Below are positions 30,241 to 45,100 of a stretch of DNA of 64,000 bases, in pieces (the stretch's first letter is position 1; each line of letters starts with the position of its first letter). The notes beneath the pieces were generated by a model. It did not search any database. It saw nothing but the letters and a program-made list of their open reading frames with translations, and had not been told where the DNA came from. Made by a program: the position numbers and the translations under genes. Origin of the DNA: an uncultured archaeon (GTDB taxonomy: Archaea > Asgardarchaeota > Lokiarchaeia > Sigyniarchaeales > SOKP01); NCBI GenBank assembly GCA_964508365.1, contig CAZDTP010000006.1, positions 1 to 64,000 of the forward strand, in the 5' to 3' direction.

Positions 30241-32346
30241 ATGCTAAGACAAGTTTACATTTATAGAAGCGGCAAGCTACTCTATTATCGTCATTTTGGA
30301 AAAGCACTTAAGAAAGAAGCTTTTGAATCGTTAGTAGGTGATTTGATGCAAGATGCTTTTGCCAAAGGAGGTAAAAATGTAGAATATCACGATTATTATA
30401 AATATAGAATATCGTACATTACAGATAAAGATTTAGAGTTAATGTTTTTATTTGTTACTGGGCTAACAGATAATTTCGATAATATTAAAAAAGAATTAAT
30501 AAAGTGTAAAAAAGAATTTTTAAATTTATTTGAAGACATACTCCAACACAAATTTGACGCTAAAACATTCGAGATTTTTGACCCTACAATCGATTCAATT
30601 CATAGGAATTTAAGACCAAAAATATCGTTAGTAGGATTTTCTGGCGTAGGAAAAACTACTATAACTCGTTTAATCAAAGCTGAAGAAATTCCTATGGAAC
30701 ACATTCCGACCATAACAGGAGACATCGCTACAATCAAAATAGGAAAACTACACTTTCATTTATGGGATTTTGCTGGACAAGAACAGTTCAGCTATTTGTG
30801 GAATAATTTCATTAAAGGGAGCGATGCTGTTTTATTGATAACAGATTCTACCTTAGAAAATGTAGAAAAAAGTAAATTCTTCCTTGAGCTCATAAAAGAA
30901 CAAGCCGCTCAAGCACATACTTCTGTAATTGGTAATAAACAGGATTTAGACGATGCTATGAAACCAGAACAAATAGAGAAGATATTGGGGTTAAAAACCT
31001 ATTCAATGATCGCAAAGAATTCAGGAAATCGAGATAAAATGATAACTATCATTGCTGATATACTTGAAATGAGCGCAGAAGTTTCACCTCTATTGCAACC
31101 ATTGTTAGAACGAGATACTTATACAGAAGAAGCTGTTAAAGCTTTAGAAAGCGGAAAATTTGAGGATGCTGCAATGTGTTTTGAGAAAATAAGCGATCTC
31201 TGCATTGAATTAGGAGATGATTCTCTTGGGAAGGAATTTTATGAAAAATCACAAAAAATTAAAACCATGATTCAAGCAGCTAGTACACCTCAAACAGAAC
31301 CAGTTCAAGAACCACCTACACCCAAAGAAGAACCGCCTAAACCGATAGAAACACCACCCACACCCAAAGAAGAATCGCCTAAACCGATAGAAACACCACC
31401 CACACCCAAAGAAGAACCGCCTAAACCGATAGAAACACCACCCACACCCAAAGTAGAACCACCTAAACCGATAGAGGGGCCACCTAAATTTAAAAAACCT
31501 ACATTTCCTGATAGCCCTAAAGTTGAAGGTTTAGAAAAACCAAAAATACCTATTGCTACTCCACCACGTCTTCCTAAAAAAGTAGAAGAAGCTGGAAAAG
31601 AATCAGAATTGGTAGAAACTGTAAAACCAACAGAACAAAAAGAAGTAGTAATCCAAAAACAAAATGAATCTGAGATGCTAGTTCAGCCAAAAATCCAAAA
31701 AACAGTTGTAGGTTTGAATTTAAATCCCGAAGATTTTATGGTGAAACAAAGACCAAAAACTGTAACTAACGTACCTAAAGATGCTAAAAATAAACTGAAG
31801 ACATCACCTTTCGCCCACGTTTCTAATCCTACGGAATCAAAAAGACCCGTACCTATTTCACCAACAGAGTTAGTTAGTAAAAAATTACCTTCGGGATTCA
31901 TACCACCTGAGAAGAAAGCCGCACCTAAGATTCAGAACATACCTAAAATCCCAACATCAGAGATATCAAAAGAACCTCCTGCTCCTCCTATGCCTGTGAG
32001 CCCCACTACTTTAGTAAAAACCACTCCAAAAGTAACCCCTCCTCAACCTCCTAAAGAACCTAATGTGAAGACTCTACCTGATATCGTGCAAAATCAGACT
32101 ATAGTGGATATGCCCGCAATAACGGTAACTACAGATGCAGGGCAAAAAGCAGATTTAGAAAAATCTTTAATGGATCTAAAAATAAAGAAAGCAAGCACTA
32201 CCAGAATGTCGTTGGATTTTGACATGAAGGAACTTACAGGGGAAATCACTGGAGAAGAACTTGAGAAAAAGAAGAATAAGTTATCTATAATTGAAAAAAA
32301 TATTAATGAACAAATCAAAGAAATAGAAAAATTACTGGGAAGATAA
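30241..32346 (+). CDS. Longin-like domain + Arf/Rag-like small GTPase + helical TPR-like module + Pro-rich linker + C-terminal helical hairpin
   Basis: N-terminal longin-like start (MLRQVYIYRSGKLLYYRHF); G1 GFSGVGKT, G2 HIPT, G3 WDFAGQ, G4 NKQD; Pro-rich region from ~aa 350. Confidence 0.85.
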   Translation: MLRQVYIYRSGKLLYYRHFGKALKKEAFESLVGDLMQDAFAKGGKNVEYHDYYKYRISYITDKDLELMFLFVTGLTDNFDNIKKELIKCKKEFLNLFEDILQHKFDAKTFEIFDPTIDSIHRNLRPKISLVGFSGVGKTTITRLIKAEEIPMEHIPTITGDIATIKIGKLHFHLWDFAGQEQFSYLWNNFIKGSDAVLLITDSTLENVEKSKFFLELIKEQAAQAHTSVIGNKQDLDDAMKPEQIEKILGLKTYSMIAKNSGNRDKMITIIADILEMSAEVSPLLQPLLERDTYTEEAVKALESGKFEDAAMCFEKISDLCIELGDDSLGKEFYEKSQKIKTMIQAASTPQTEPVQEPPTPKEEPPKPIETPPTPKEESPKPIETPPTPKEEPPKPIETPPTPKVEPPKPIEGPPKFKKPTFPDSPKVEGLEKPKIPIATPPRLPKKVEEAGKESELVETVKPTEQKEVVIQKQNESEMLVQPKIQKTVVGLNLNPEDFMVKQRPKTVTNVPKDAKNKLKTSPFAHVSNPTESKRPVPISPTELVSKKLPSGFIPPEKKAAPKIQNIPKIPTSEISKEPPAPPMPVSPTTLVKTTPKVTPPQPPKEPNVKTLPDIVQNQTIVDMPAITVTTDAGQKADLEKSLMDLKIKKASTTRMSLDFDMKELTGEITGEELEKKKNKLSIIEKNINEQIKEIEKLLGR
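31312..31479 (+). repeat. Four tandem 42-bp repeats encoding PPTPKEEPPKPIET
   Basis: Near-identical ccacc(c/t)acacccaaagaagaaccgcctaaaccgatagaaaca units, directly visible. Confidence 0.95.
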
Positions 32347-34000: not shown

Positions 34001-34528
34001 TTATTGAGTTCTTGACTCAACAATTCTACGTGTAAGTTCAGTAAAGGAGTCGTCAACATTAATACCTGATTTTGCTGAAGTTTCAATGTAAATACTGCCT
34101 TCCTTCTCAGCAAAAGCCCGAGCCTCGTCTCTATCTATTACTTCTCCGACATCTTCAAGTAAATCTGCTTTATTCCCAATTAATACAAATGGTATGTTTT
34201 CGTTGCTAAATTGTCGTATTTCTGTTAGCCATTTTCTTGTTTCGATGTAAGTTTGTTCTCTTGTTAAATCAAAAACTAATAAAGCGCCAGCAGCTCCCTT
34301 GTAGAAAGTTGATCGGATGAATTCGAACCTTTGTTGACCACCAATATCCCATATGCTTAAAGTTGCTACTTCGCCTGGTTTAAATTCTACATCTTTGGTG
34401 AGAATGTCTACTCCAACCGTTAATTTGTAGTTTGCCGCGAATCGGTTTTTAATAAACCTCTGAACCAAACTCGTCTTTCCGACAGCAGCAGCACCCGTGA
34501 GTAAAACTTTTAATTTAAAACTTGACAT
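34001..34528 (-). CDS. Rab-like small GTPase
   Basis: G1 GAAAVGKT, TVGVD, WDIGGQQRF, FYKGA, LVFDLT, GNKAD, ETSAK. Confidence 0.95.
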   Translation of the reverse strand: MSSFKLKVLLTGAAAVGKTSLVQRFIKNRFAANYKLTVGVDILTKDVEFKPGEVATLSIWDIGGQQRFEFIRSTFYKGAAGALLVFDLTREQTYIETRKWLTEIRQFSNENIPFVLIGNKADLLEDVGEVIDRDEARAFAEKEGSIYIETSAKSGINVDDSFTELTRRIVESRTQ

Positions 34529-34825: not shown

Positions 34826-36820
34826 TTATCTTTTTGGGATATGCGCATATTCTTTCAGACTGGGAAATAAATTTAAGTTTAAATGAGGAAAGTACATAGC
34901 TGAAGCAAATTCTTTTTGGAAATCTTTTTCAATTGCTATTTCGACATACTTTATTTTTTCCTGTAATTTTCGCGCTTTTTTTCTTAAATCTACATTTAAT
35001 AAACAATTTTGCGCTCCGATCCCTGCTGCGTTACCAATTTGAAAAAGTTTTTCGTCAGGAATATCAGGAATCATCCCTATAAATTTCGCGTTACTTTTAT
35101 TGATGTAATTTCCAAATGCTCCTGCTAAAAGAATCTGTTTAATTTCTAGTTCTGAGTTGTTTACACGATTTAAATGGTTTAAAATCAAACGTGCTCCAGA
35201 GAAGAACGCCCCTTTTGCCATTTGTAATTCTCTAACATCACTTTGTGAAATCGTAATGTGTCTCTTAATTGGGGTATCGTCTTTATTTACTAATATAAAT
35301 TTAAAGTTTTTCTCTTCTTTTACTATACGCTCGTGGTCTATGAATTCTTTATTAAAGTTACCACTTTTTGTAAGCAGTTTCGCTCGTAACATTTCGGCTA
35401 CTGCATCAATAATACCAGAACCACAAATACCTATGGGTTTTCTGTTATTAATTGTGGTATATTCAACACCAAAATCAATCGGGTCAATTTTTAGAGTGTC
35501 AATAGCCCCTGCTGCGGCTCGCATGCCGTGGTTAATATGAGCACCTTCTAAGGCAGATCCCGCTGCACAAGATCCCGTATAAAGTACATCCTTATTACCT
35601 ATCACCAATTCACCATTAGTCCCAACATCAATTGCTAATGTTAATTCTGGTTCTTCATCAATCTCTGATGAAATAATTACTCCCATTGTGTCAGCTCCAA
35701 CGAAACCCGCAATCAATGGTAATAAATAAACATATCCGCTTCTAGAAATCTCAAGATTAACATCTTTGGCCTTTATGTTTAAATCACTCTTCAGCGCGGG
35801 CACATAAGGACTTAAGCCGATATATGTAGGATTTATATTGAGGAATAGATGATGCATAACCGAATTTCCAACGATTGTTGCCTCATATATTTGACTAGGT
35901 GAAACATTAGCATTAGTACATGTTTCTTCTATTATTGAGTTTAAAGATTCTATCAGAACAGAATTTAGTTTTACAAGTCCCGCGGGATTATCTTTTGTGT
36001 ATGTTATACGCGAAACAACATCTTCCCCATAGGCTGTCTGTGGATTAAGAGCTGATGCAATTGAATATACTTTTCCATTGAGCAAATTGATTAAATAACC
36101 AACAAGAGTAGTAGTTCCAATGTCAAATGCGATTCCGAAACAATCTTCGGTTTTATTACCTGCTTCGCAGTCTATAAATTTCTTATTATTGTATAATGTT
36201 AATGAAATACGGTGCTGCTCTTCTCTTAAGACTAGGGGAATTTTTCTTATGGTATCGATTTCAAACGAAACATCACTATGAATTCCTTTATTATCCTTAC
36301 TTGACGAAAGAGAAGATAAAATTCTTTCAATATCAGGAACAGGGTTTTCTAAATTTGGTTTATTAATTTCAACAAAAATTTTCCTTACATTCGGATTAAG
36401 GTTTATTTTTTTAGATTTTCCTGATGTCAATATCTTAAAATCTTCGACTAGTAGATCTTTGGGCAGAAATATTCTAAACTGGGGTGGTTGATGTGTTTCA
36501 ACTGACTGAATTTGGGATTTTTTTACTCTACATTGACAAGCCAACCGCCAGTTTTCTTTAATCTCCGACTGCGTAAGAAATTTCATTTCAGAGTTTGTTG
36601 GCGGATTTAAAAAATGCATTCCTTCTTGAACCACTATTTTACACTTTCCGCATGTTCCGTTACCACCACAAAGGGACTGCACACGGATATTTGAATTGAT
36701 TAGTAATTCGTAAAAGGTTTCATTCTTGGTGTAGAAGAGCCTTCTCGAGATCGGTTCAATATCGACTATAATCTGAAAATTATTACTTTTCACGAAAGCT
36801 CCTCTTGTTAACTTTTTCAA
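34826..36820 (-). CDS. ASKHA-type ATPase with N-terminal 2Fe-2S ferredoxin (RACo/AcsV-like reductive activator of corrinoid proteins)
   Basis: CGGNGTCGKC...RLACQ; DIGTTT, NPQTAYGEDVVSR, DVGTNGE, CAAGSALEG, GICGSG and LAGAFG motifs. Confidence 0.92.
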   Translation of the reverse strand: MKKLTRGAFVKSNNFQIIVDIEPISRRLFYTKNETFYELLINSNIRVQSLCGGNGTCGKCKIVVQEGMHFLNPPTNSEMKFLTQSEIKENWRLACQCRVKKSQIQSVETHQPPQFRIFLPKDLLVEDFKILTSGKSKKINLNPNVRKIFVEINKPNLENPVPDIERILSSLSSSKDNKGIHSDVSFEIDTIRKIPLVLREEQHRISLTLYNNKKFIDCEAGNKTEDCFGIAFDIGTTTLVGYLINLLNGKVYSIASALNPQTAYGEDVVSRITYTKDNPAGLVKLNSVLIESLNSIIEETCTNANVSPSQIYEATIVGNSVMHHLFLNINPTYIGLSPYVPALKSDLNIKAKDVNLEISRSGYVYLLPLIAGFVGADTMGVIISSEIDEEPELTLAIDVGTNGELVIGNKDVLYTGSCAAGSALEGAHINHGMRAAAGAIDTLKIDPIDFGVEYTTINNRKPIGICGSGIIDAVAEMLRAKLLTKSGNFNKEFIDHERIVKEEKNFKFILVNKDDTPIKRHITISQSDVRELQMAKGAFFSGARLILNHLNRVNNSELEIKQILLAGAFGNYINKSNAKFIGMIPDIPDEKLFQIGNAAGIGAQNCLLNVDLRKKARKLQEKIKYVEIAIEKDFQKEFASAMYFPHLNLNLFPSLKEYAHIPKR

Positions 36821-36974: not shown

Positions 36975-39900
36975 ATGGAGGGAAATGAAGAACTTGCTCA
37001 GGAAGCTTTAAGGTATCTCAATTTAGCTCAAAAATTTGAGAATGAAAAAAATTTTGAAAAAGCTGTGGAGAGTTATGATTTAGCAGCAACTTATCTTAAA
37101 AATAGTGGTTTTTTGATGGATAAAATAAGTGATATCTATTTTAGGATCGAAGAATTAAAAGATTTTACAAAACAAGAGATAACATATAATCAAGCAAGAG
37201 CAAAAAATCAACTTGAGCAATTACAAGAACAAGCTTTTTCTTTGTTGGATGGAGCTCAAAAATTAGAGATAGATGGATTTTTGGAAGACGCAATTGAACA
37301 ATATGAGGCAGCAATCAAATTATTAATTCAAACAGGTTGGTCTGAAGCTCAATTAAGCAATTTACAAAGCAAACTAATTACATTATCAGAAAATTTAAGA
37401 CACCATAAAGTAGTGACCAAAACCAAAATTGGGGAAGTTCAAGAACAAGATAATAGTCAGAAAGAAATTAAACCACAGGTTGTTAGCGCTTTTGGAGAAA
37501 AGAAAAGCACAGTAAAAGCTGAAGAATTAAAGAAGTTTAAAGAGATGAAACAGCAAGAGCAAGAAATACAAAACGACGCGTTTAAGTTTATTGATAATGC
37601 AAAATTTTTTGAAAACGATAAGAATTTCGATAAAGCAATCGAGAATTACGAAAACGCTGTAAAATTATTGAATTCTATAGGGTGGCACGACCAAACAAAG
37701 AATATCAACCTAGTTATTGAAAAATTAAAAAATGATAAAAAAGAGTTTGAACAATTTAGAACTCAGAAACAAATAGAACCTAAATTTAATAAAGAACAGA
37801 CTGATGAGTATGAAGGAATAAGGACACATATCTATAGAGATGAAGAGAAAATACAAATTGAAGCATTTAATTTAGTGGATTTTGGTAAAAAATTGGAAAG
37901 AGAGAAGAAATACGATCAAGCGGTTAATAAATTTCAGAAAGCAATTGAATTGTTTAAATCCATTGAATGGGATTCTTATATTCAACCAGTTATCAACTTT
38001 ATCAAAAATATCGAAAATAAACAGTCGCGGGAAGAAGAAGAAGTTATTTTAAGACAAAAAAGGGAGGACCAGCTAAAAAACCTACAAGATACGATATATT
38101 TTAAGGAAAAAGATGAAATTATTGAAACCGCAAAAGAACTGGATAAAAGAAGATTCGAATACGAACAAAAAAGAAAAGAAAATTTGAGGAAAGAAGAGAA
38201 CTTGTTTATAATTTTAGATGACGCGGATAGAATACTAAAAGAAGAATCTGATTATAACAAAGCAATTAATAGGTACACAGAAGCATTAGAATATCTAAAG
38301 GGATTAGGGCCAGATTGGGAATCGAATGCTTCTACAATTGAAGAGACTATTTTAAGTATTAAAAACTTAGAAGAATACAAAGTTGAAAAAGATTTAGAGC
38401 ACCAAACTAAATTAGAACTACGCAGAAAAAGTGATTTAGAATTTCAACAGCTCACCTCAATAGAGTTAGCAAAGGAAAGAGCAAAAATAAGGCAGAGAGA
38501 AAGCACTTTACAAGAAAAAATAGAAGAATCGGAACAACGCGAAAAGCGTAAAGCTGACGCGTATAAAGCTTTAGATAAAGCTGATTATTATATAAAAAAA
38601 TCGGAGTTAGATAAAGCAATTGCTGCTTATCAAAATGCGGGAAATATCTTCGCAAGTATACAATGGAACGACGAATTACATTTAATTGAAAATTCGATAA
38701 GAGAATTAGAAAATAGGAAAAGAGAACAATTATTAACAAAACAAAAAGAAATGATGAAATCTATTGAGAAATTTAAGGTTGAACAGCAGTTTCAGGAACA
38801 GATATCAAAACAACTCCGATTAGAAAGAGAGCAATTAAAAGAGAAAAAAATCTTATTAAGAGATCATAATGCAGAATTAATGCATCGAGAGAAGCGAAAA
38901 GATGAAGCCTTTAGGATATTGGAAAATGCTCATGTCTATCTTGAAAAAGGCAATTTTGATAAAGCAATTGAATTCTATCAGCAGGTAACTGGTATTTTTG
39001 CTGAAATTCAATGGTATGATGAAATGGAGAGGATAGGGAACGCTATAATCGAAATCGAAAATAAAAAACGTGATGTTAATCTCAAAAAACAAAGAGATAT
39101 GGAAATTCTTATCAAGAAAGAAAGAGAGGATAGAGAATTTCAAGAAAAAGTAATCAATGAGATGAACGCAAAGAGAAAAAAACTAGAAGAAAGAGAGATA
39201 GTTAAGAAAGAACGCGAAAATGAACTTAATTTTAGAGAAATGCAAAAGGAAAACGCGTTTAAAATCTTGGATGAAGCGCAAAACTATCTTTCTTTAGGAG
39301 AATTCGAGTTAGCAATTGAAAGCTATAGAAATGTAAATCAAATTTTTGCTCAAATTCAATGGATCGACGAAATTACATTTATTAACCAAACAATTAACAA
39401 AATCGAAAATGAAAAGAAGGAACAAGAAATAAGGAAACAAAGGGAGTTCGAGCAGTTAATCAAAGAAGATGCCGAACACAATCAATTTCTAAACAATTTA
39501 AAAATTCAAAGAGAAAGAGAAAAAAGATTAATCCAAAAAGAAAGGGATATTTTAGAAACAAAAAAGGAATTGAGTTCCCAGAACGCTTTAAAACAACAAG
39601 AAGCGTTCAAAATCATTGAGGAAGCTGATGAATTTTTAGCGAAAGAGAACTATGATGAAGCCATTGACTCATATCAAAATGCGCTTAAATCCCTCAAAGA
39701 CATAGGGTGGACGGGAAAATACATTTCATTGTTAGAAGAGTCAGTTCGAAATCTGCAATTTAAAAAGAACGAAAGAGAGCGCCAAAAATTACTCGAAAAA
39801 GAAAAACTACGAAAACAAGTAGAAGAAGAAAGAGAATTTGAGAGAATAGTGACAGAAAGTTTTCAAAAAGAAAGAGAAAAGATGCTATCTAAGAAGATCG

Positions 39901-41900
39901 AGCTTTTTAAAAAAGAAGATATGAAGAAATTAATGGAGACAAAGAAGATGGAAGCCTTTTCCATAATGGATAAGGCAGACCAACTATTAACAGAAGGGAA
40001 GTATGAAGAATCTATAGAAAATTATTATAAAGCAGAGTTAATCTTAATTCAGATTCAGTTTCCTATTGAAATAATAAAAGATACCATCATAAAAATTCAA
40101 GAAAAAAAACGGGAAGCCGACATATTAAAGCAACAAGAGTTAGAAAATGAAATTAGAAAACAAGAAAAAGAGAAACACTTTCTTCAGACTATTGCTGATA
40201 ACATGAAATACGAAGAAAAACAAATGAGAGTTAAACAAATTAAAATTAAAAAACAAGAAGACCTTAAATTACATTTGGAAAAACGCAAAGAAGCTGCTTT
40301 CGAATTGCTTGACGAAGCTGAATTATATATAAAGCGTGCAGATTACGATAAAGCATTAGAGTACTATCGAAGCGCGGAGTTAGTGCTAAATGAAATTAAC
40401 TACCCTACGAATTCGATTAAAGAGTCAATCGTTCAACTTAAAAAGAAGAAGAGAGTCCACGAATTCCAAAAACAAAAAGCACTTGAAAAAAAGCTTCAAA
40501 AAGAACGTGAGGAAATTGATTTTCAAAAGAGAGTCTCGCAAAATATCAGTAAAGAAAGAGAACGCTTAAAACTAAAAAAGATTGAAGATAAAAAATTAAT
40601 TTTAACACAAGCAATTATAGAAAGAAAAAAAGATGACGCTTTTAATATTTTAGATGAAGCTGAGCTACACATTAACAATTCTAACTTCGAATTAGCAATT
40701 ATGAGTTATAGGAAAGCTATGTTAATTCTTAATGAGATAAATTTTCCAACAGATTCCATTAGCGCTATGATCGTAAAGGCGGAAACGCTTAAAAAACAAA
40801 GAGAACAAGAAGAGGAGCTAAAGTTAAAAAGAGAATTAGAACGGCTGAAAGAGGAGAGGAATTTGGAAAATATCTTAAAGGAAAGAAGACGTCAAGAAAG
40901 AGAAAAGAAGAAAGCTCAGCAGATTGCAGCTAAACAAAGAGAAAGAATTATTCAAGACCAATTGACGTTTAGAGAAGCAGCATATTCTCTCTTAGAAGAT
41001 GGTGGAAAATATATTAAAATGAGCACTCCTGATTTCGATAAAGCAATATCTTTGTATATTCAAGCAAGAGATTTATTAGCTGAAAAAATAGGGTGGGAAC
41101 CCGAAATTACTAATTTAAACACTTTAATCAAGGATTTAATCCATGAAAAAGAACATTATTTAGAAAAGAAAAAAGCAGAAGAAGAAACTAACATTAAAAG
41201 ACAACAAGAATATGAACTTTTTCGCGAAGAGATGGAGAAACAACAAATGGAAACTGAACTTAGAAAAAGAGAACAACAAAAGAAATTTAAGAAGTTATAC
41301 GAAACTCAGAAACAAACTGAAAAAATAAGAGAAGAAGGATTAAAGCTTATAGATGAAGGGAAAGAATTAGCTACTAAATATGATTTTACGGCTGCATACA
41401 TGAAATTTAATACAGCGATTACTAAGTTTAAGGAAATTGGTTGGAGCGAACAAGCGAAATTTATTAAGAAAGAGATTGAGAATACGAGAGAATTTGAGCA
41501 AAATGTAATTGAAAGTGATCGGAAAATAAAAAGAATTCACCAAGAACTAGAAAACCAAAAGATAAAAGAAGATCGTAAAAAGAAACAAGAAGAACAAGAA
41601 ATTAAAAGCAAGATAAAAGAAGTGAGTGTTTTAGCAGGAGAAGTTTCAAACCTAATCAAAATTAAAAAAGAAAAAGAAGAGTTGCTGTCTCATCAAAGAA
41701 GAGAAATAGTTGTATCTAAATCTAAGGAATTCCGTAAGGACATGCAAAACTTATTAAATTTGAAGCAAGATTTAACACGGGAATTGTCTGAATCAAAAGC
41801 AGCATTAGAGAATAAGAAAAAAGAAGCTGAACTAGCAAAGGATAAAGAAAAGGCAGACGAAATAAAGAAAATGTTGAAGGATATATCAAAAAACAAATAA
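36975..41900 (+). CDS. 1641-aa protein of 14 MIT/TPR-like helical modules separated by E/K/R-rich helices
   Basis: Repeated A(F/Y)x(I/L)(L/I)(D/E)xAx(8-9)(F/Y)(D/E)xAIxxYxxAxxx(F/L)xxI(G/Q/N)(W/F/Y) motif, counted 14 times. Confidence 0.85.
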   Translation: MEGNEELAQEALRYLNLAQKFENEKNFEKAVESYDLAATYLKNSGFLMDKISDIYFRIEELKDFTKQEITYNQARAKNQLEQLQEQAFSLLDGAQKLEIDGFLEDAIEQYEAAIKLLIQTGWSEAQLSNLQSKLITLSENLRHHKVVTKTKIGEVQEQDNSQKEIKPQVVSAFGEKKSTVKAEELKKFKEMKQQEQEIQNDAFKFIDNAKFFENDKNFDKAIENYENAVKLLNSIGWHDQTKNINLVIEKLKNDKKEFEQFRTQKQIEPKFNKEQTDEYEGIRTHIYRDEEKIQIEAFNLVDFGKKLEREKKYDQAVNKFQKAIELFKSIEWDSYIQPVINFIKNIENKQSREEEEVILRQKREDQLKNLQDTIYFKEKDEIIETAKELDKRRFEYEQKRKENLRKEENLFIILDDADRILKEESDYNKAINRYTEALEYLKGLGPDWESNASTIEETILSIKNLEEYKVEKDLEHQTKLELRRKSDLEFQQLTSIELAKERAKIRQRESTLQEKIEESEQREKRKADAYKALDKADYYIKKSELDKAIAAYQNAGNIFASIQWNDELHLIENSIRELENRKREQLLTKQKEMMKSIEKFKVEQQFQEQISKQLRLEREQLKEKKILLRDHNAELMHREKRKDEAFRILENAHVYLEKGNFDKAIEFYQQVTGIFAEIQWYDEMERIGNAIIEIENKKRDVNLKKQRDMEILIKKEREDREFQEKVINEMNAKRKKLEEREIVKKERENELNFREMQKENAFKILDEAQNYLSLGEFELAIESYRNVNQIFAQIQWIDEITFINQTINKIENEKKEQEIRKQREFEQLIKEDAEHNQFLNNLKIQREREKRLIQKERDILETKKELSSQNALKQQEAFKIIEEADEFLAKENYDEAIDSYQNALKSLKDIGWTGKYISLLEESVRNLQFKKNERERQKLLEKEKLRKQVEEEREFERIVTESFQKEREKMLSKKIELFKKEDMKKLMETKKMEAFSIMDKADQLLTEGKYEESIENYYKAELILIQIQFPIEIIKDTIIKIQEKKREADILKQQELENEIRKQEKEKHFLQTIADNMKYEEKQMRVKQIKIKKQEDLKLHLEKRKEAAFELLDEAELYIKRADYDKALEYYRSAELVLNEINYPTNSIKESIVQLKKKKRVHEFQKQKALEKKLQKEREEIDFQKRVSQNISKERERLKLKKIEDKKLILTQAIIERKKDDAFNILDEAELHINNSNFELAIMSYRKAMLILNEINFPTDSISAMIVKAETLKKQREQEEELKLKRELERLKEERNLENILKERRRQEREKKKAQQIAAKQRERIIQDQLTFREAAYSLLEDGGKYIKMSTPDFDKAISLYIQARDLLAEKIGWEPEITNLNTLIKDLIHEKEHYLEKKKAEEETNIKRQQEYELFREEMEKQQMETELRKREQQKKFKKLYETQKQTEKIREEGLKLIDEGKELATKYDFTAAYMKFNTAITKFKEIGWSEQAKFIKKEIENTREFEQNVIESDRKIKRIHQELENQKIKEDRKKKQEEQEIKSKIKEVSVLAGEVSNLIKIKKEKEELLSHQRREIVVSKSKEFRKDMQNLLNLKQDLTRELSESKAALENKKKEAELAKDKEKADEIKKMLKDISKNK

Positions 41901-41912
41901 TCTCGTATTTTC

Positions 41913-43445
41913 CTAACCTATATCTCTATTATATACCCTCTTATATAATATGCTTGCGTAAATTAATCCTATAATATTAATTCCTAACAAAACCATAAAG
42001 GTGATATTACCATATTCAAAAACCAGTCTTACTAAAAAATTTCCTGATTCTTTGCTATGTAATTTTACTAATAAAAAATAATCTTGAAAAACGCTTGTAA
42101 AAACACCCAATCTTTTTAATCGACGATCTGGAATTATTTGGTTAATAGTATTAGAAATCATCGCAGGTATCCCGAACTCGTTAGGTTCACTGTGAAACAC
42201 ATACATTTCAGCTTTCGCTAGACCGAGCTGCACTAGTTCGAAATAATAGTGGTTAGGAGCCAGCCTAATTGGTAGACAATAAACGCTATAATTTTCATTA
42301 AGTAAAAATCCAATTTCAGTACTATCATTAATTAGAACAGGTGGTTCTAAGGCGTCTAAAGCAGCGTAACCTTGAACTACACCCCATCCTTGAACATTGT
42401 CCTGAAAAACTTTTGCATTTATAGTTTTAAGAGAAGTTAATGATATTATGCTTTTTATTTGCGATGGAGTGAGTGATTCATCCTTTTCAAGCATTAGAGC
42501 AGCTAACCCCGCGACGAATGGTGTAGCTCCCGAAGTTCCTGATCTAAAACTGTACTGGTTTAAAAGATCTATATCCGCACCATAAATCGCAACTGCAGGG
42601 GCACATACATCTGGTTTTTTAGTCATCTCAATAGTAGGGCCTTTAGCACTATACGGATACATGTTACCATCATAATCTACACCACCAACTGCAAGTGTTG
42701 CTTTATCAGAAGCGGGAGCGTTAATAGTTCTATCTCCATAAGCGGAATTGGGATTGCCATCATTACCTGCTGCTGCAATTACTAAAATTCCTATATCTGC
42801 AAGTCTTCGAGTAAGTTTCTGAATGTATAATATGGAAAAAATATTATCTGCTTCAGGTTTTGCTCCAAAGCTCATACTTACTATTCTAATATTAAATGTA
42901 TCCTTGTTTAGAAGAATCCAATTGATCGCATTCTCAAATATAGTTGCATTTGTTTCTCCACTACTATCAAAAATCCTCAATATGACAAATTTTATACCAG
43001 GTGCGACACCCCGATATTGACTTGAATTACCACCCAGAATAGATGCCGCCCATGTACCATGACCATAATCATCTTGTGGATAGTCAGAATTGTTATTAAT
43101 GAAATCAACGTACATAATAATCCTATCGGTCCAATTCAACTTCCCATCGTTAGTAAAAACGCTATGGTTGCAAAAAATACCAGTATCTACCATAGCAATA
43201 GTTACATTATTTCCGGTTAATCCATATTTATTATCAATGTCTCGTAGTCCAATATGATCGCTAGCATTGAATGTAGAGCTAAGTTCTAATTCATTAGGCA
43301 ATATCTGACGTGAGTTATCTACATTCCAACTAGTTAAGTGTAAATCGACTGGATGAGGAATATTATATCCGAAAATACCAATAATTAAAAATTGGGAAAT
43401 GGGAAAAGCTATAAAGATGATACAAATTAAACAAGGCTTTCTCAA
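41913..43445 (-). CDS. Subtilisin-like S8 serine peptidase with N- and C-terminal hydrophobic segments
   Basis: Catalytic triad VDTG / HGT / GTSGATP; oxyanion-hole AAGNDG. Confidence 0.92.
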   Translation of the reverse strand: MRKPCLICIIFIAFPISQFLIIGIFGYNIPHPVDLHLTSWNVDNSRQILPNELELSSTFNASDHIGLRDIDNKYGLTGNNVTIAMVDTGIFCNHSVFTNDGKLNWTDRIIMYVDFINNNSDYPQDDYGHGTWAASILGGNSSQYRGVAPGIKFVILRIFDSSGETNATIFENAINWILLNKDTFNIRIVSMSFGAKPEADNIFSILYIQKLTRRLADIGILVIAAAGNDGNPNSAYGDRTINAPASDKATLAVGGVDYDGNMYPYSAKGPTIEMTKKPDVCAPAVAIYGADIDLLNQYSFRSGTSGATPFVAGLAALMLEKDESLTPSQIKSIISLTSLKTINAKVFQDNVQGWGVVQGYAALDALEPPVLINDSTEIGFLLNENYSVYCLPIRLAPNHYYFELVQLGLAKAEMYVFHSEPNEFGIPAMISNTINQIIPDRRLKRLGVFTSVFQDYFLLVKLHSKESGNFLVRLVFEYGNITFMVLLGINIIGLIYASILYKRVYNRDIG

Positions 43446-43522: not shown

Positions 43523-45100
43523 ATGACAGAAAACAAGGAAAATATCAAAAAATCCCGTATGTACGCCCGCCAACAATTAATTGACGGTTGGGATCAAGAA
43601 ATTGTAAGTAAAGGTTGTATTATGATTGTTGGTGTGGGAGCCTTAGGTTGCGAAATAGCAAAGGATTTTGCATTAATGGGTATTGGAAAATTAGTTTTAG
43701 TGGACCTTGACACCATTGAAACATCTAATTTGTCCCGTCAGATGTTATTCAAACCGGGGGATGAAGGTCGTCCTAAAGCAGAAGTCGCAGCTGAAAGACT
43801 TAAAGACATGAATCCTTTTTTGAAAGTCGATTTTTATTTTGAAAAACTCCAAAAATTACCAATGTCGGTGTACGAAGAATGCGATGTCATCATTGCCGCT
43901 TTAGATAACTTTAATGCAAGGTTAGATTTGAATAAGATTTGTCTTCGGATGAAAAAACCAATGGTAGAGGGAGGAACAGTAGGATTTGAAGGTCATGTAC
44001 AAATAGTCATTCCTAAAGATTCAGCACTCGAATATAAAAATAGAGAAATTGAAATCGAAAACATTGTAGAAACGAGAATGTGGGAATTTGATAATCCAGA
44101 GTACTTAGATGCACAAAAAGAAATCGAACAACTAGAATATTTGATAGAGCGGTTGAAGCAAGAGAAACTCGAACCATTTAGAAGGTTAGTAAGAAAACAG
44201 GTAGAAGCAGAATTTGATAACAAATATGCAGAGGATGTTTTGAATATAACGCCTTGTTACCGATGTTTAGTCCCGATTCCTCCTGCAGATGATAAGTTGA
44301 TTGCAGCGTGTACTTTAAAAGGGCTTCCAAGAAATAGAAACCATTGCGTTATAAAAGCTGAAGTCATTTTCGAAAAAGAATACGGTTTTAAACCTGATAT
44401 GAATGTTGATGACGATGTGGTAAAATTATTGGCTTTAGCTCAGAAAGAATTGGCAGAATTAAGGAACCGAGTTTTTAATGAAAATGTTCCTGAAGAAAAG
44501 TTAGAAACGCTTACGCCAGAAGAAATTAAAGAGTGGAAAGAAAATATTAAAGAGACTTTCGGAGAAGATTATAAATTTGAAGAAATGGAAAACATCTTAG
44601 GTAATAAAATTGCTGCTATTCAATCAGTAAGTTCTATAATTTCTAGCATTCAATCGCAAGAAGCCTTAAAATTGTTATTTCGATTACATGGAAGAAATAT
44701 TGGTCCACCTATGGATCCTCCTTATGTTAATTATAATGGCGTATATGGCCAATTTGATCATTTAGATATTATCAAACGAGAAGATTGTCTAGCGTGTGGA
44801 GATATTGAAGGTGAAGAAAATGTACAATTAGTCGTTCCTTTTGATGCCGATATAGGTTATATTTTCAAAGCTATGAGAATAATAGGTCATGCTTTAGAAC
44901 CCATTTTATGGATGATTACAAACCCTGTTAATAAAGAAATGTATTGGAATCCTTATATGAGCGGTGAATTTAAAGATCCAACTATAAAACTGACAACACT
45001 AAAAATAAAAAGCAACGATATAATAGCTCTCACTCCACTTGGAAAAGCAAAAGTAGAATCAGAAATTAAAAAATACAATGTGGTTATTACTTTCATGTAA
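43523..45100 (+). CDS. Ubiquitin-like-activating enzyme E1 (ThiF family, UBA3/UBA2-like)
   Basis: YARQ, VGVGALGC, DLDTIETSNLSRQ; Zn motifs PCYRC and DCLAC; catalytic-type Cys263 in IAACTLKGLPR. Confidence 0.9.
   Translation: MTENKENIKKSRMYARQQLIDGWDQEIVSKGCIMIVGVGALGCEIAKDFALMGIGKLVLVDLDTIETSNLSRQMLFKPGDEGRPKAEVAAERLKDMNPFLKVDFYFEKLQKLPMSVYEECDVIIAALDNFNARLDLNKICLRMKKPMVEGGTVGFEGHVQIVIPKDSALEYKNREIEIENIVETRMWEFDNPEYLDAQKEIEQLEYLIERLKQEKLEPFRRLVRKQVEAEFDNKYAEDVLNITPCYRCLVPIPPADDKLIAACTLKGLPRNRNHCVIKAEVIFEKEYGFKPDMNVDDDVVKLLALAQKELAELRNRVFNENVPEEKLETLTPEEIKEWKENIKETFGEDYKFEEMENILGNKIAAIQSVSSIISSIQSQEALKLLFRLHGRNIGPPMDPPYVNYNGVYGQFDHLDIIKREDCLACGDIEGEENVQLVVPFDADIGYIFKAMRIIGHALEPILWMITNPVNKEMYWNPYMSGEFKDPTIKLTTLKIKSNDIIALTPLGKAKVESEIKKYNVVITFM

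Follow-up and report, generated by a model that had tools for sequence, protein, structure and literature searches.

The window analysed here is a stretch of 64,000 nucleotides (nts) from an uncultured archaeon of the Lokiarchaeia (positions 1 to 64,000 of contig CAZDTP010000006.1, GenBank assembly GCA_964508365.1). It lies on contig C6 of a 149-contig, 4.07-Mb genome, has a G+C content of 25-35% (2-kb bins) and carries, at 36975..41900 on the + strand, an open reading frame (ORF) of 1641 amino acids (aa), P0001, that begins at the first ATG after a stop. A previous inspection made without database searches, referred to below as the sequence-only reading, described the product as 14 MIT-like three-helix modules joined by long charged helices and suggested a multivalent scaffold or ruler, possibly for ESCRT-III. 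The locus raises the question of what these modules are, how they are connected and what a protein of this shape would serve. We find that the modules are kept at distances conserved to the residue between genera and that related proteins differ in length by whole units. We assign a probability of about 0.5 to the reading that the product, hereafter the rod protein, is a cytoplasmic, all-helical rod acting as a fixed-geometry spacer or ruler-type scaffold.

Residue-exact spacing and whole-unit length classes

A hidden Markov model (HMM) of the module was seeded from nine copies found by a regular expression within the rod protein. The HMM recovered exactly 14 modules of ~65 aa with i-Evalues of 1e-10 to 1e-30, starting at aa 8, 83, 198, 293, 408, 525, 641, 757, 873, 990, 1104, 1218, 1334 and 1452; three further matches were weak (E 0.075 to 1) and a total of one match was obtained over 50 shuffled versions of the protein. 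The count of 14 given by the sequence-only reading is therefore confirmed, and the repeat unit it quoted was located at aa 642-680. Successive modules start 76, 115 and 95 aa apart and then 113-119 aa apart. No tandem repeat of ~348 nts was present in the gene at the DNA level and the other modules are just 19-49% identical to module 7, indicating that the copies are ancient and do not result from an assembly artefact.

The spacing of the modules was then compared among ~110 full-length homologs, 38-85% identical and all present in Loki-type Asgard genomes. They have a common spacing vector of 76, variable, variable, 113, 119 (or 118), 116, 116, 116, 117, 114, 114, 114 and 119 aa, in which only linkers 2 and 3 vary. 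When 79 sequences were aligned over a stretch of 377 residues, the alignment had 377 columns and hence no gap, down to 40% identity. Among 22 diverse orthologs with 14 units, indels were found just at aa 1-5, 147-162, 272-286 and 1639-1641, leaving a segment without any indel from aa 287 to aa 1638 (37833..41888, + strand) that comprises modules 4-14 and their helical linkers of ~55-60 aa. The variable N-terminal region (37413..37850, +) consists of linker 2, with indels at aa 147-162 and a proline at position 167, module 3 (aa 198-263) and linker 3, with indels at aa 272-286 and Pro269. Linkers 2 and 3 are likely hinges, as they are the sole internal sites where orthologs vary in length.

Homologs of other lengths fall into discrete size classes of 9, 14, 18, 20 and 25 units, corresponding to ~1075, 1641, 2122, 2331 and 2927 aa, respectively. 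These classes arise by gain or loss of blocks in a central cassette formed by modules 6-11 (38547..40478, +): blocks of the cassette are repeated in the 18-, 20- and 25-unit relatives and most of it is missing in the 9-unit relative. Both ends are kept. The head, made of modules 1 and 2 (aa 8-73 and 83-149; 36996..37421, +) at their distance of 76 aa, is constant across all size classes, and the distance from the start of the last module to the C-terminus, which includes a helical tail (aa 1511-1641; 41505..41897, +), is 190-195 aa in every class. No clean rule was found in the spacings, either modulo 7, modulo 11 or per 3.6 residues. Combined, residue-exact spacing and changes of length by whole units form the pattern expected of a ruler, a spacer or a component of a lattice, and they bring strong new support to the scaffold or ruler proposed from the sequence.

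The family is narrowly distributed. In 300 genomes sampled across the phylum, a three-unit profile detected it in 63 of the 68 genomes of the window's own family, weakly in two of the six sister-family genomes, and in none of the 226 genomes from the other 28 families; among 1.84 billion representative proteins, 247 matched at E<=1e-3. Named homologs all come from metagenome-assembled genomes of Lokiarchaeota or Promethearchaeota, where they are labelled 'hypothetical' or 'TPR repeat protein'. The literature on Asgard MIT, repeat, giant, spectrin-like or ruler proteins, also searched with the locus tag of the MK-D1 relative (see below), yielded no description of the family.

Fold of the modules and nature of the linkers

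The sequence-only reading had likened the modules to MIT domains. At the level of profiles, MIT (PF04212 in Pfam) matched the whole rod protein with 72.5 bits summed over six partial stretches; of the 66 profile positions, the best stretches span just 2-35 or 3-39. In a genome scan, the two modules that were scored reached 23.7 bits each for a Pfam cut-off of 30 bits, so that neither gave a full-length match above it. TPR_1, TPR_2 and TPR_12 exceeded their whole-protein cut-offs. The signal for either family is confined to the end of helix 1 and to helix 2. When 136 single modules were scanned against Pfam at E<=0.01, MIT was the family matched most often (57 modules, best E 6e-8), followed by TPR_1 (31), TPR_2 (27) and SNAP (11). 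A profile built from the same 136 modules conforms to the helix-turn-helix consensus of the 34-aa TPR (PF00515, PF07719 and relatives) and found its best matches in consensus TPR designs, aligned over positions 14-36 with ~17 bits per stretch. It also matched genuine MIT domains, those of calpain-7, archaeal Vps4 and Atg38, with E values of 5e-4 to 7e-3, and the matches to calpain-7 and Vps4 extend into helix 3.

Module 7 (aa 639-707; 38889..39095, +) modelled alone with AlphaFold2 (AF2) was predicted as a bundle of three helices, with a predicted local distance difference test (pLDDT) of 89.7 and a predicted template-modelling score (pTM) of 0.70; in size and topology this model corresponds to the three-helix bundle of ~70 aa that characterizes MIT domains. 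Such a bundle is called a node below. With Foldseek, the best full-length fit of the single node was the MIT domain of NRBF2 (template-modelling score, TM, 0.83-0.85; root-mean-square deviation, rmsd, 1.8 Å), ahead of the katanin p60N MIT domain (TM 0.70), Vps4 (0.54-0.58) and MITD1 (~0.55); TPR arrays superposed with an rmsd of ~10 Å. The three-unit model described below gave global matches with an rmsd above 45 Å and one sensible local match, the MIT domain of Sulfolobus Vps4 (2w2u). However, a search of representative PDB chains with VIA-align 2 cannot tell MIT from capped TPR: overall Z scores of 8.6-10.8 were tied across TPR-plus-cap units (9.9-10.4), MIT domains (9.3-10.3), designed bundles and a plakin spectrin repeat (plectin, 9.2). 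A feature search of the ESM Atlas returned solely TPR-like or hypothetical clusters, with scores of 0.87 or below. The residues conserved across all modules are nearly all core hydrophobics and no polar groove signature common to them stands out.

The likeness to MIT therefore holds for the predicted bundle and its structural fits but does not extend to the profiles, whose match stops at about position 35-39 of 66, or to the search in which MIT and capped TPR tie. The repeats are predicted to be isolated bundles and not a stacked TPR superhelix. A fair description of the module is a three-helix node of MIT type, within the TPR clan, rather than a demonstrated MIM-binding MIT domain.

The connection between nodes was modelled with AF2 on aa 517-893, using the 79 aligned sequences; this segment includes modules 6-8 with their linkers (aa 525-873; 38547..39591, +). 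The model has a mean pLDDT of 86 and a pTM of 0.35, and the linkers themselves are at ~75-92. It shows continuous helices of ~92 aa (H52-142, H165-258 and H281-373) separated by a helix 2 of 17 aa: helix 3 of each node, the linker and helix 1 of the node after it are predicted to form one uninterrupted helix, leaving ~50 aa of helix outside any bundle in each unit. The predicted connectivity is spectrin-like, as a single helix closes one bundle and opens the following one. The repeats are not spectrin repeats by profile or by dimensions, as Pfam gave no match to PF00435 at E<=1 and the unit is not one of ~106 aa made of three long helices. As a prediction, the extended beads-on-a-rod architecture proposed earlier is upheld.

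The view of the linkers as stable single helices rich in E, K and R fared less well. They are predicted helical and are charged (50-57%), but they are not pure E/K/R tracts: 21-34% of their residues are hydrophobic, at odds with the very high E/K/R content and near lack of hydrophobics of classic ER/K single alpha-helices (SAHs), and one conserved hydrophobic residue recurs per heptad, at unit offsets 69, 83, 90, 97, 104 and 111. No proline is found in the rod linkers. In the 22 orthologs their conservation (0.64-0.73) comes close to that of the modules (0.68-0.82). Because of this composition, of the heptad stripe and of the conservation, classic ER/K linkers were rejected, and the hydrophobic stripe must be a contact surface of some kind.

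The remainder of the earlier description was accurate: the rod protein has no transmembrane segment (the maximum Kyte-Doolittle mean over 19 residues is 1.21) and no enzymatic domain or catalytic motif, Pfam giving only MIT and TPR-type families and NCBIfam no match above its cut-offs. A sequence search of the PDB with the whole protein found nothing below E 0.028. The protein is predicted to be a cytoplasmic, all-helical rod.

A proposed fixed-geometry rod and its alternatives

In the reading that we favour, the unit of ~116 aa would consist of one helix of ~92 residues and one return helix of 17 residues. Each node would be an MIT/TPR-like packing of three segments, namely the end of one long helix, the return helix that follows it and the beginning of the long helix after that, and successive nodes would be joined by a common unbroken helix as in spectrin. 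From helix geometry, the axial advance would be roughly 11 nm per unit, and the 14-unit form would be very roughly 130-170 nm long. The nodes fold from local sequence, and folding alone therefore cannot fix the length of ~50 aa of free helix; since that length is residue-exact, the constraint must be one of higher-order geometry, with selection on the axial distance and the rotational phase between nodes. Such a geometry would match either a lattice or partner of periodic structure, or else adjacent copies of the rod assembled with a stagger. The likely sites of contact would be the nodes and the one-per-heptad hydrophobic stripe of the linkers, and evolution would change the length of the rod solely in whole units, through gain or loss in the central cassette. 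The number of repeats, their invariant spacing, the whole-unit size classes, the narrow taxonomic range and the synteny are direct observations, whereas helix continuity and node fold are predictions of the models; rigidity, overall length, the role as a ruler and the partner are inferred.

Several points weigh against this reading. Any partner of the rod is hypothetical. The pTM of the three-unit model is just 0.35, so that straightness and rigidity are tentative. Long helices with 21-34% hydrophobic residues may be unstable as monomers and could pair as coiled coils or bend back on themselves, and the length estimate would then differ. The spacings are conserved yet non-uniform (113 to 119 aa) and fit uneasily with one-to-one binding along a strictly periodic filament. 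Lastly, the association of the gene with an E1-like gene (see below) could have been inherited within one family without any link in function.

The alternative that survives best, although we consider it unlikely, is a self-assembling cytoskeletal element likened to spectrin, intermediate filaments or bacterial coiled-coil-rich proteins. The linker stripe would hold rods together, in pairs or bundles, as coiled-coil dimers or staggered filaments, the nodes would be joints and not ligand sites, and length would be conserved since staggered neighbours need to keep register. The linkers are indeed coiled-coil-like and not ER/K-like, with a periodicity peak at 3.5 residues and an 'a'-type stripe, and the spectrin-like connectivity of the AF2 model points in the same direction. 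In the best structural match, NRBF2/Atg38, a coiled coil that dimerises comes after the MIT domain, and several paralogous rods that could pair are encoded per genome. However, just one hydrophobic residue is conserved per heptad and polar residues prevail at the 'd' position, a poor basis for a canonical two-stranded coiled coil. As the spacing vector is no palindrome, in-register pairing of nodes between antiparallel rods is unlikely, and an antiparallel homodimer in register was rejected as the reason why length is conserved. A parallel homodimer in register would not, on its own, preclude indels.

The multivalent ESCRT-III scaffold put forward by the sequence-only reading appears improbable. 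Nodes would bind the C-terminal MIM helices of ESCRT-III, which MIT domains take up in the groove between helices 2 and 3 or helices 1 and 3, and the rod would lie along ESCRT-III polymers or bridge them. In its favour, MIT is the Pfam family matched by most single modules (57 of 136) and the node fold fits MIT domains, including that of archaeal Vps4. Besides a Vps4, the genome has genes for two ESCRT-III proteins with C-terminal tails that look MIM1-like by eye (LEEELNKLK and LEDEIDKLR). Ubiquitin and ESCRT systems are linked in Asgard archaea (PMC11188069), and the neighbour of the rod gene is E1-like. On the other side, the MIT profile covers helices 1-2 alone, the part common with TPR, no scored module reached the cut-off, and the residues conserved across modules are nearly all core hydrophobics, with no common polar groove signature standing out. 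Furthermore, the rod gene is outside any ESCRT/Vps4 neighbourhood, both ESCRT-III genes and the Vps4 gene being on other contigs, and the rod protein is restricted to one family, unlike ESCRT-III and Vps4, for which descriptions exist from lineages throughout the Asgard archaea (PMC11188069). A complex prediction of three modules with the C-terminal 68 residues of the ESCRT-III protein from contig C27 returned no answer (score 0.00, mark 0.32) and weighs neither for nor against ESCRT-III/CdvB as a partner.

The ESCRT loci showed additional features. The stronger ESCRT-III/Snf7 homolog is at the very start of contig C27 (locus L018, 18-716, +); ~12 kb from ESCRT-III on the same contig, a gene for a protein of 180 aa (L004, 1177-1719, +) gives a weak match to the MIT profile (21.6 bits). 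The Vps4 gene is on contig C88, where the adjoining ORF of 402 aa (L001, 1894-3102, +) resembles, by eye alone, TnpB/OrfB of the IS200/IS605 type.

The gene neighbourhood bears on a further possibility, which we regard as quite improbable: a golgin- or EEA1-like tether or adaptor, whose nodes would capture small GTPases or E1/E2 ubiquitin-like components along a rod of 100-300 nm. Eukaryotic long tethers are helical rods with GTPase-binding sites at intervals. In five genera the rod gene is followed, on its own strand, by a conserved ThiF/E1-like gene (43523..45100, + in the window), and this adjacency is kept in the one genus in which the upstream neighbours have changed. Upstream and divergent are a gene for a RACo-type activase (34826-36820, -) and, two genes away from the rod gene, one for a small Ras-like GTPase (34001-34528, -), each retained in four of these five genera. 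Other neighbours in the window are a 701-aa fusion of the Ras/Arf GTPase family (30241-32346, +) and a HAD hydrolase. However, the synteny may be inherited since all the genomes compared belong to one family, and an antisense subtilase gene, which in the window occupies 41913-43445 between the rod and E1-like genes, is inserted there in two of the five genera, arguing against a strict operon. Paralogous rods of class B (see below) adjoin a UPF0182 gene instead, and the rod protein has neither a membrane anchor nor a recognisable GTPase-binding domain.

Finally, an ordinary TPR repeat protein, in which hairpins would stack into a superhelix separated by disordered charged spacers, is essentially excluded despite the TPR families above their whole-protein cut-offs, the best profile matches to consensus TPR designs and the annotation of some sources, because the TPR-like match amounts to one stretch of ~23 residues per 116 aa, hairpins lie 76-119 aa apart with no 34-aa array and no three contiguous stacked repeats, AF2 predicts isolated nodes on confident helices (linker pLDDT ~75-92), TPR arrays superpose on the node just at ~10 Å, and the linkers are conserved and free of indels, unlike disordered spacers.

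Relatives and comparison with known systems

The rod protein belongs to a wider superfamily. The window's genome encodes at least two further module-bearing proteins: one of at least 784 aa on contig C38 (L010, 1-2352, -), cut by a run of N, and one of 453 aa on contig C6 at ~102-103.5 kb, outside the window (L012, 676-2037, -); both show GW-ending modules and charged helices. Superfamily members looked up by name were all Loki-type, including DSAG12_01611 (2547 aa) of Promethearchaeum syntrophicum MK-D1, a strain in culture. When representatives with the spacing signature of the rod protein itself were set aside, by far the commonest spacing between modules was 116 aa (155 occurrences), followed by 113 aa (31), 127 aa (29) and 76 aa (25). 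In one giant protein, P0135, 16 of 17 spacings are exactly 116 aa and the remaining one is 117. Among the Loki giants P0135, P0178, P0236 and P0132, runs of 116, 127 (12-13 consecutive) or 76-78 aa are observed; 127 and 116 differ by 11 residues, about three helical turns. Pfam revealed no extra domain hinting at function in five distant members. Two members of a paralogous class B, which includes DSAG12_01611 and also consists of giants of modules plus long helices, are encoded at L020 (8001-15644, +; P0207, accession CP042905.2) and L021 (8001-12692, +; P0147), where they adjoin a divergent UPF0182 gene of ~1050 aa and a small ORF of 86-127 aa.

A broader proposal, speculative and in our opinion unlikely to hold, is that the rod and the 116-aa superfamily constitute an archaeal ruler or tether that lies along or between periodic polymers of the cell, for instance Lokiactin filaments or ESCRT-III polymers, or between membranes, with one binding node every ~11 nm. 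Were this the case, dimensions of cell structures, for instance the spacing of protrusions or filament bundles, would be set by the number of units (9, 14, 18, 20 or 25), and the family, having arisen within Lokiarchaeia, would parallel nebulin, spectrin or golgins in function. This large and conserved family lacks annotation and is found only in Loki-type archaea, and the geometric constraint that it displays is unusually explicit. Given the natural series of 9 to 25 units and the class B paralog of MK-D1, an experimentally accessible relative, the ruler idea can be tested directly, with cryo-tomography, electron microscopy and binding assays. Designed nanoscale rods that carry addressable nodes at regular distances could also take this architecture as a template.

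How does the rod protein compare with known systems? Like the MIT domains of Vps4, katanin p60, MITD1 and NRBF2/Atg38, the module is an asymmetric three-helix bundle of ~70 aa in which helices 1-2 are TPR-like, and in NRBF2/Atg38, as predicted for the rod node, helix 3 runs on into a long helix. In known MIT proteins, one or two such domains sit at an end of an enzyme or adaptor, whereas rods of this family have 9-25 nodes predicted to share their outer helices with their neighbours and have no enzyme domain. The capped TPRs of Cpr7, CHIP and Sti1/Hop resemble the module equally well, since helices 1-2 fit the TPR consensus and the structural scores are equal (Z 9.9-10.4), but the rod has no tandem 34-aa arrays or superhelix, with one hairpin per 116 aa.

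The long helices find their counterparts in two other systems. Spectrin, dystrophin and plakins are likewise chains of three-helix bundles with a fixed repeat length, and the final helix of each bundle carries on as the opening helix of the bundle that follows. Spectrin repeats comprise ~106 aa in three long helices, without free helix between bundles; in contrast, the bundle of the rod is short (helix 2 of 17 aa) and is predicted to be followed by ~50 aa of free helix. The ER/K SAH spacers of myosin VI/X and caldesmon are, like the rod linkers, long charged helices predicted to act as standalone spacers. Classic SAHs are about three quarters E/K/R and their sequence evolves freely, whereas the rod linkers, 50-57% charged and 21-34% hydrophobic, have conserved hydrophobic positions and a highly conserved sequence.

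As giant modular proteins in which the number of modules sets the length and variants differ by whole blocks, nebulin and titin offer a parallel to the size classes described here. The folds are unrelated and the rod is known from sequence and prediction, making the likeness one of analogy. In conclusion, known kinds appear to be combined in the rod protein: nodes of the MIT/TPR type, a connectivity like that of spectrin and the modular build of a ruler-like rod.

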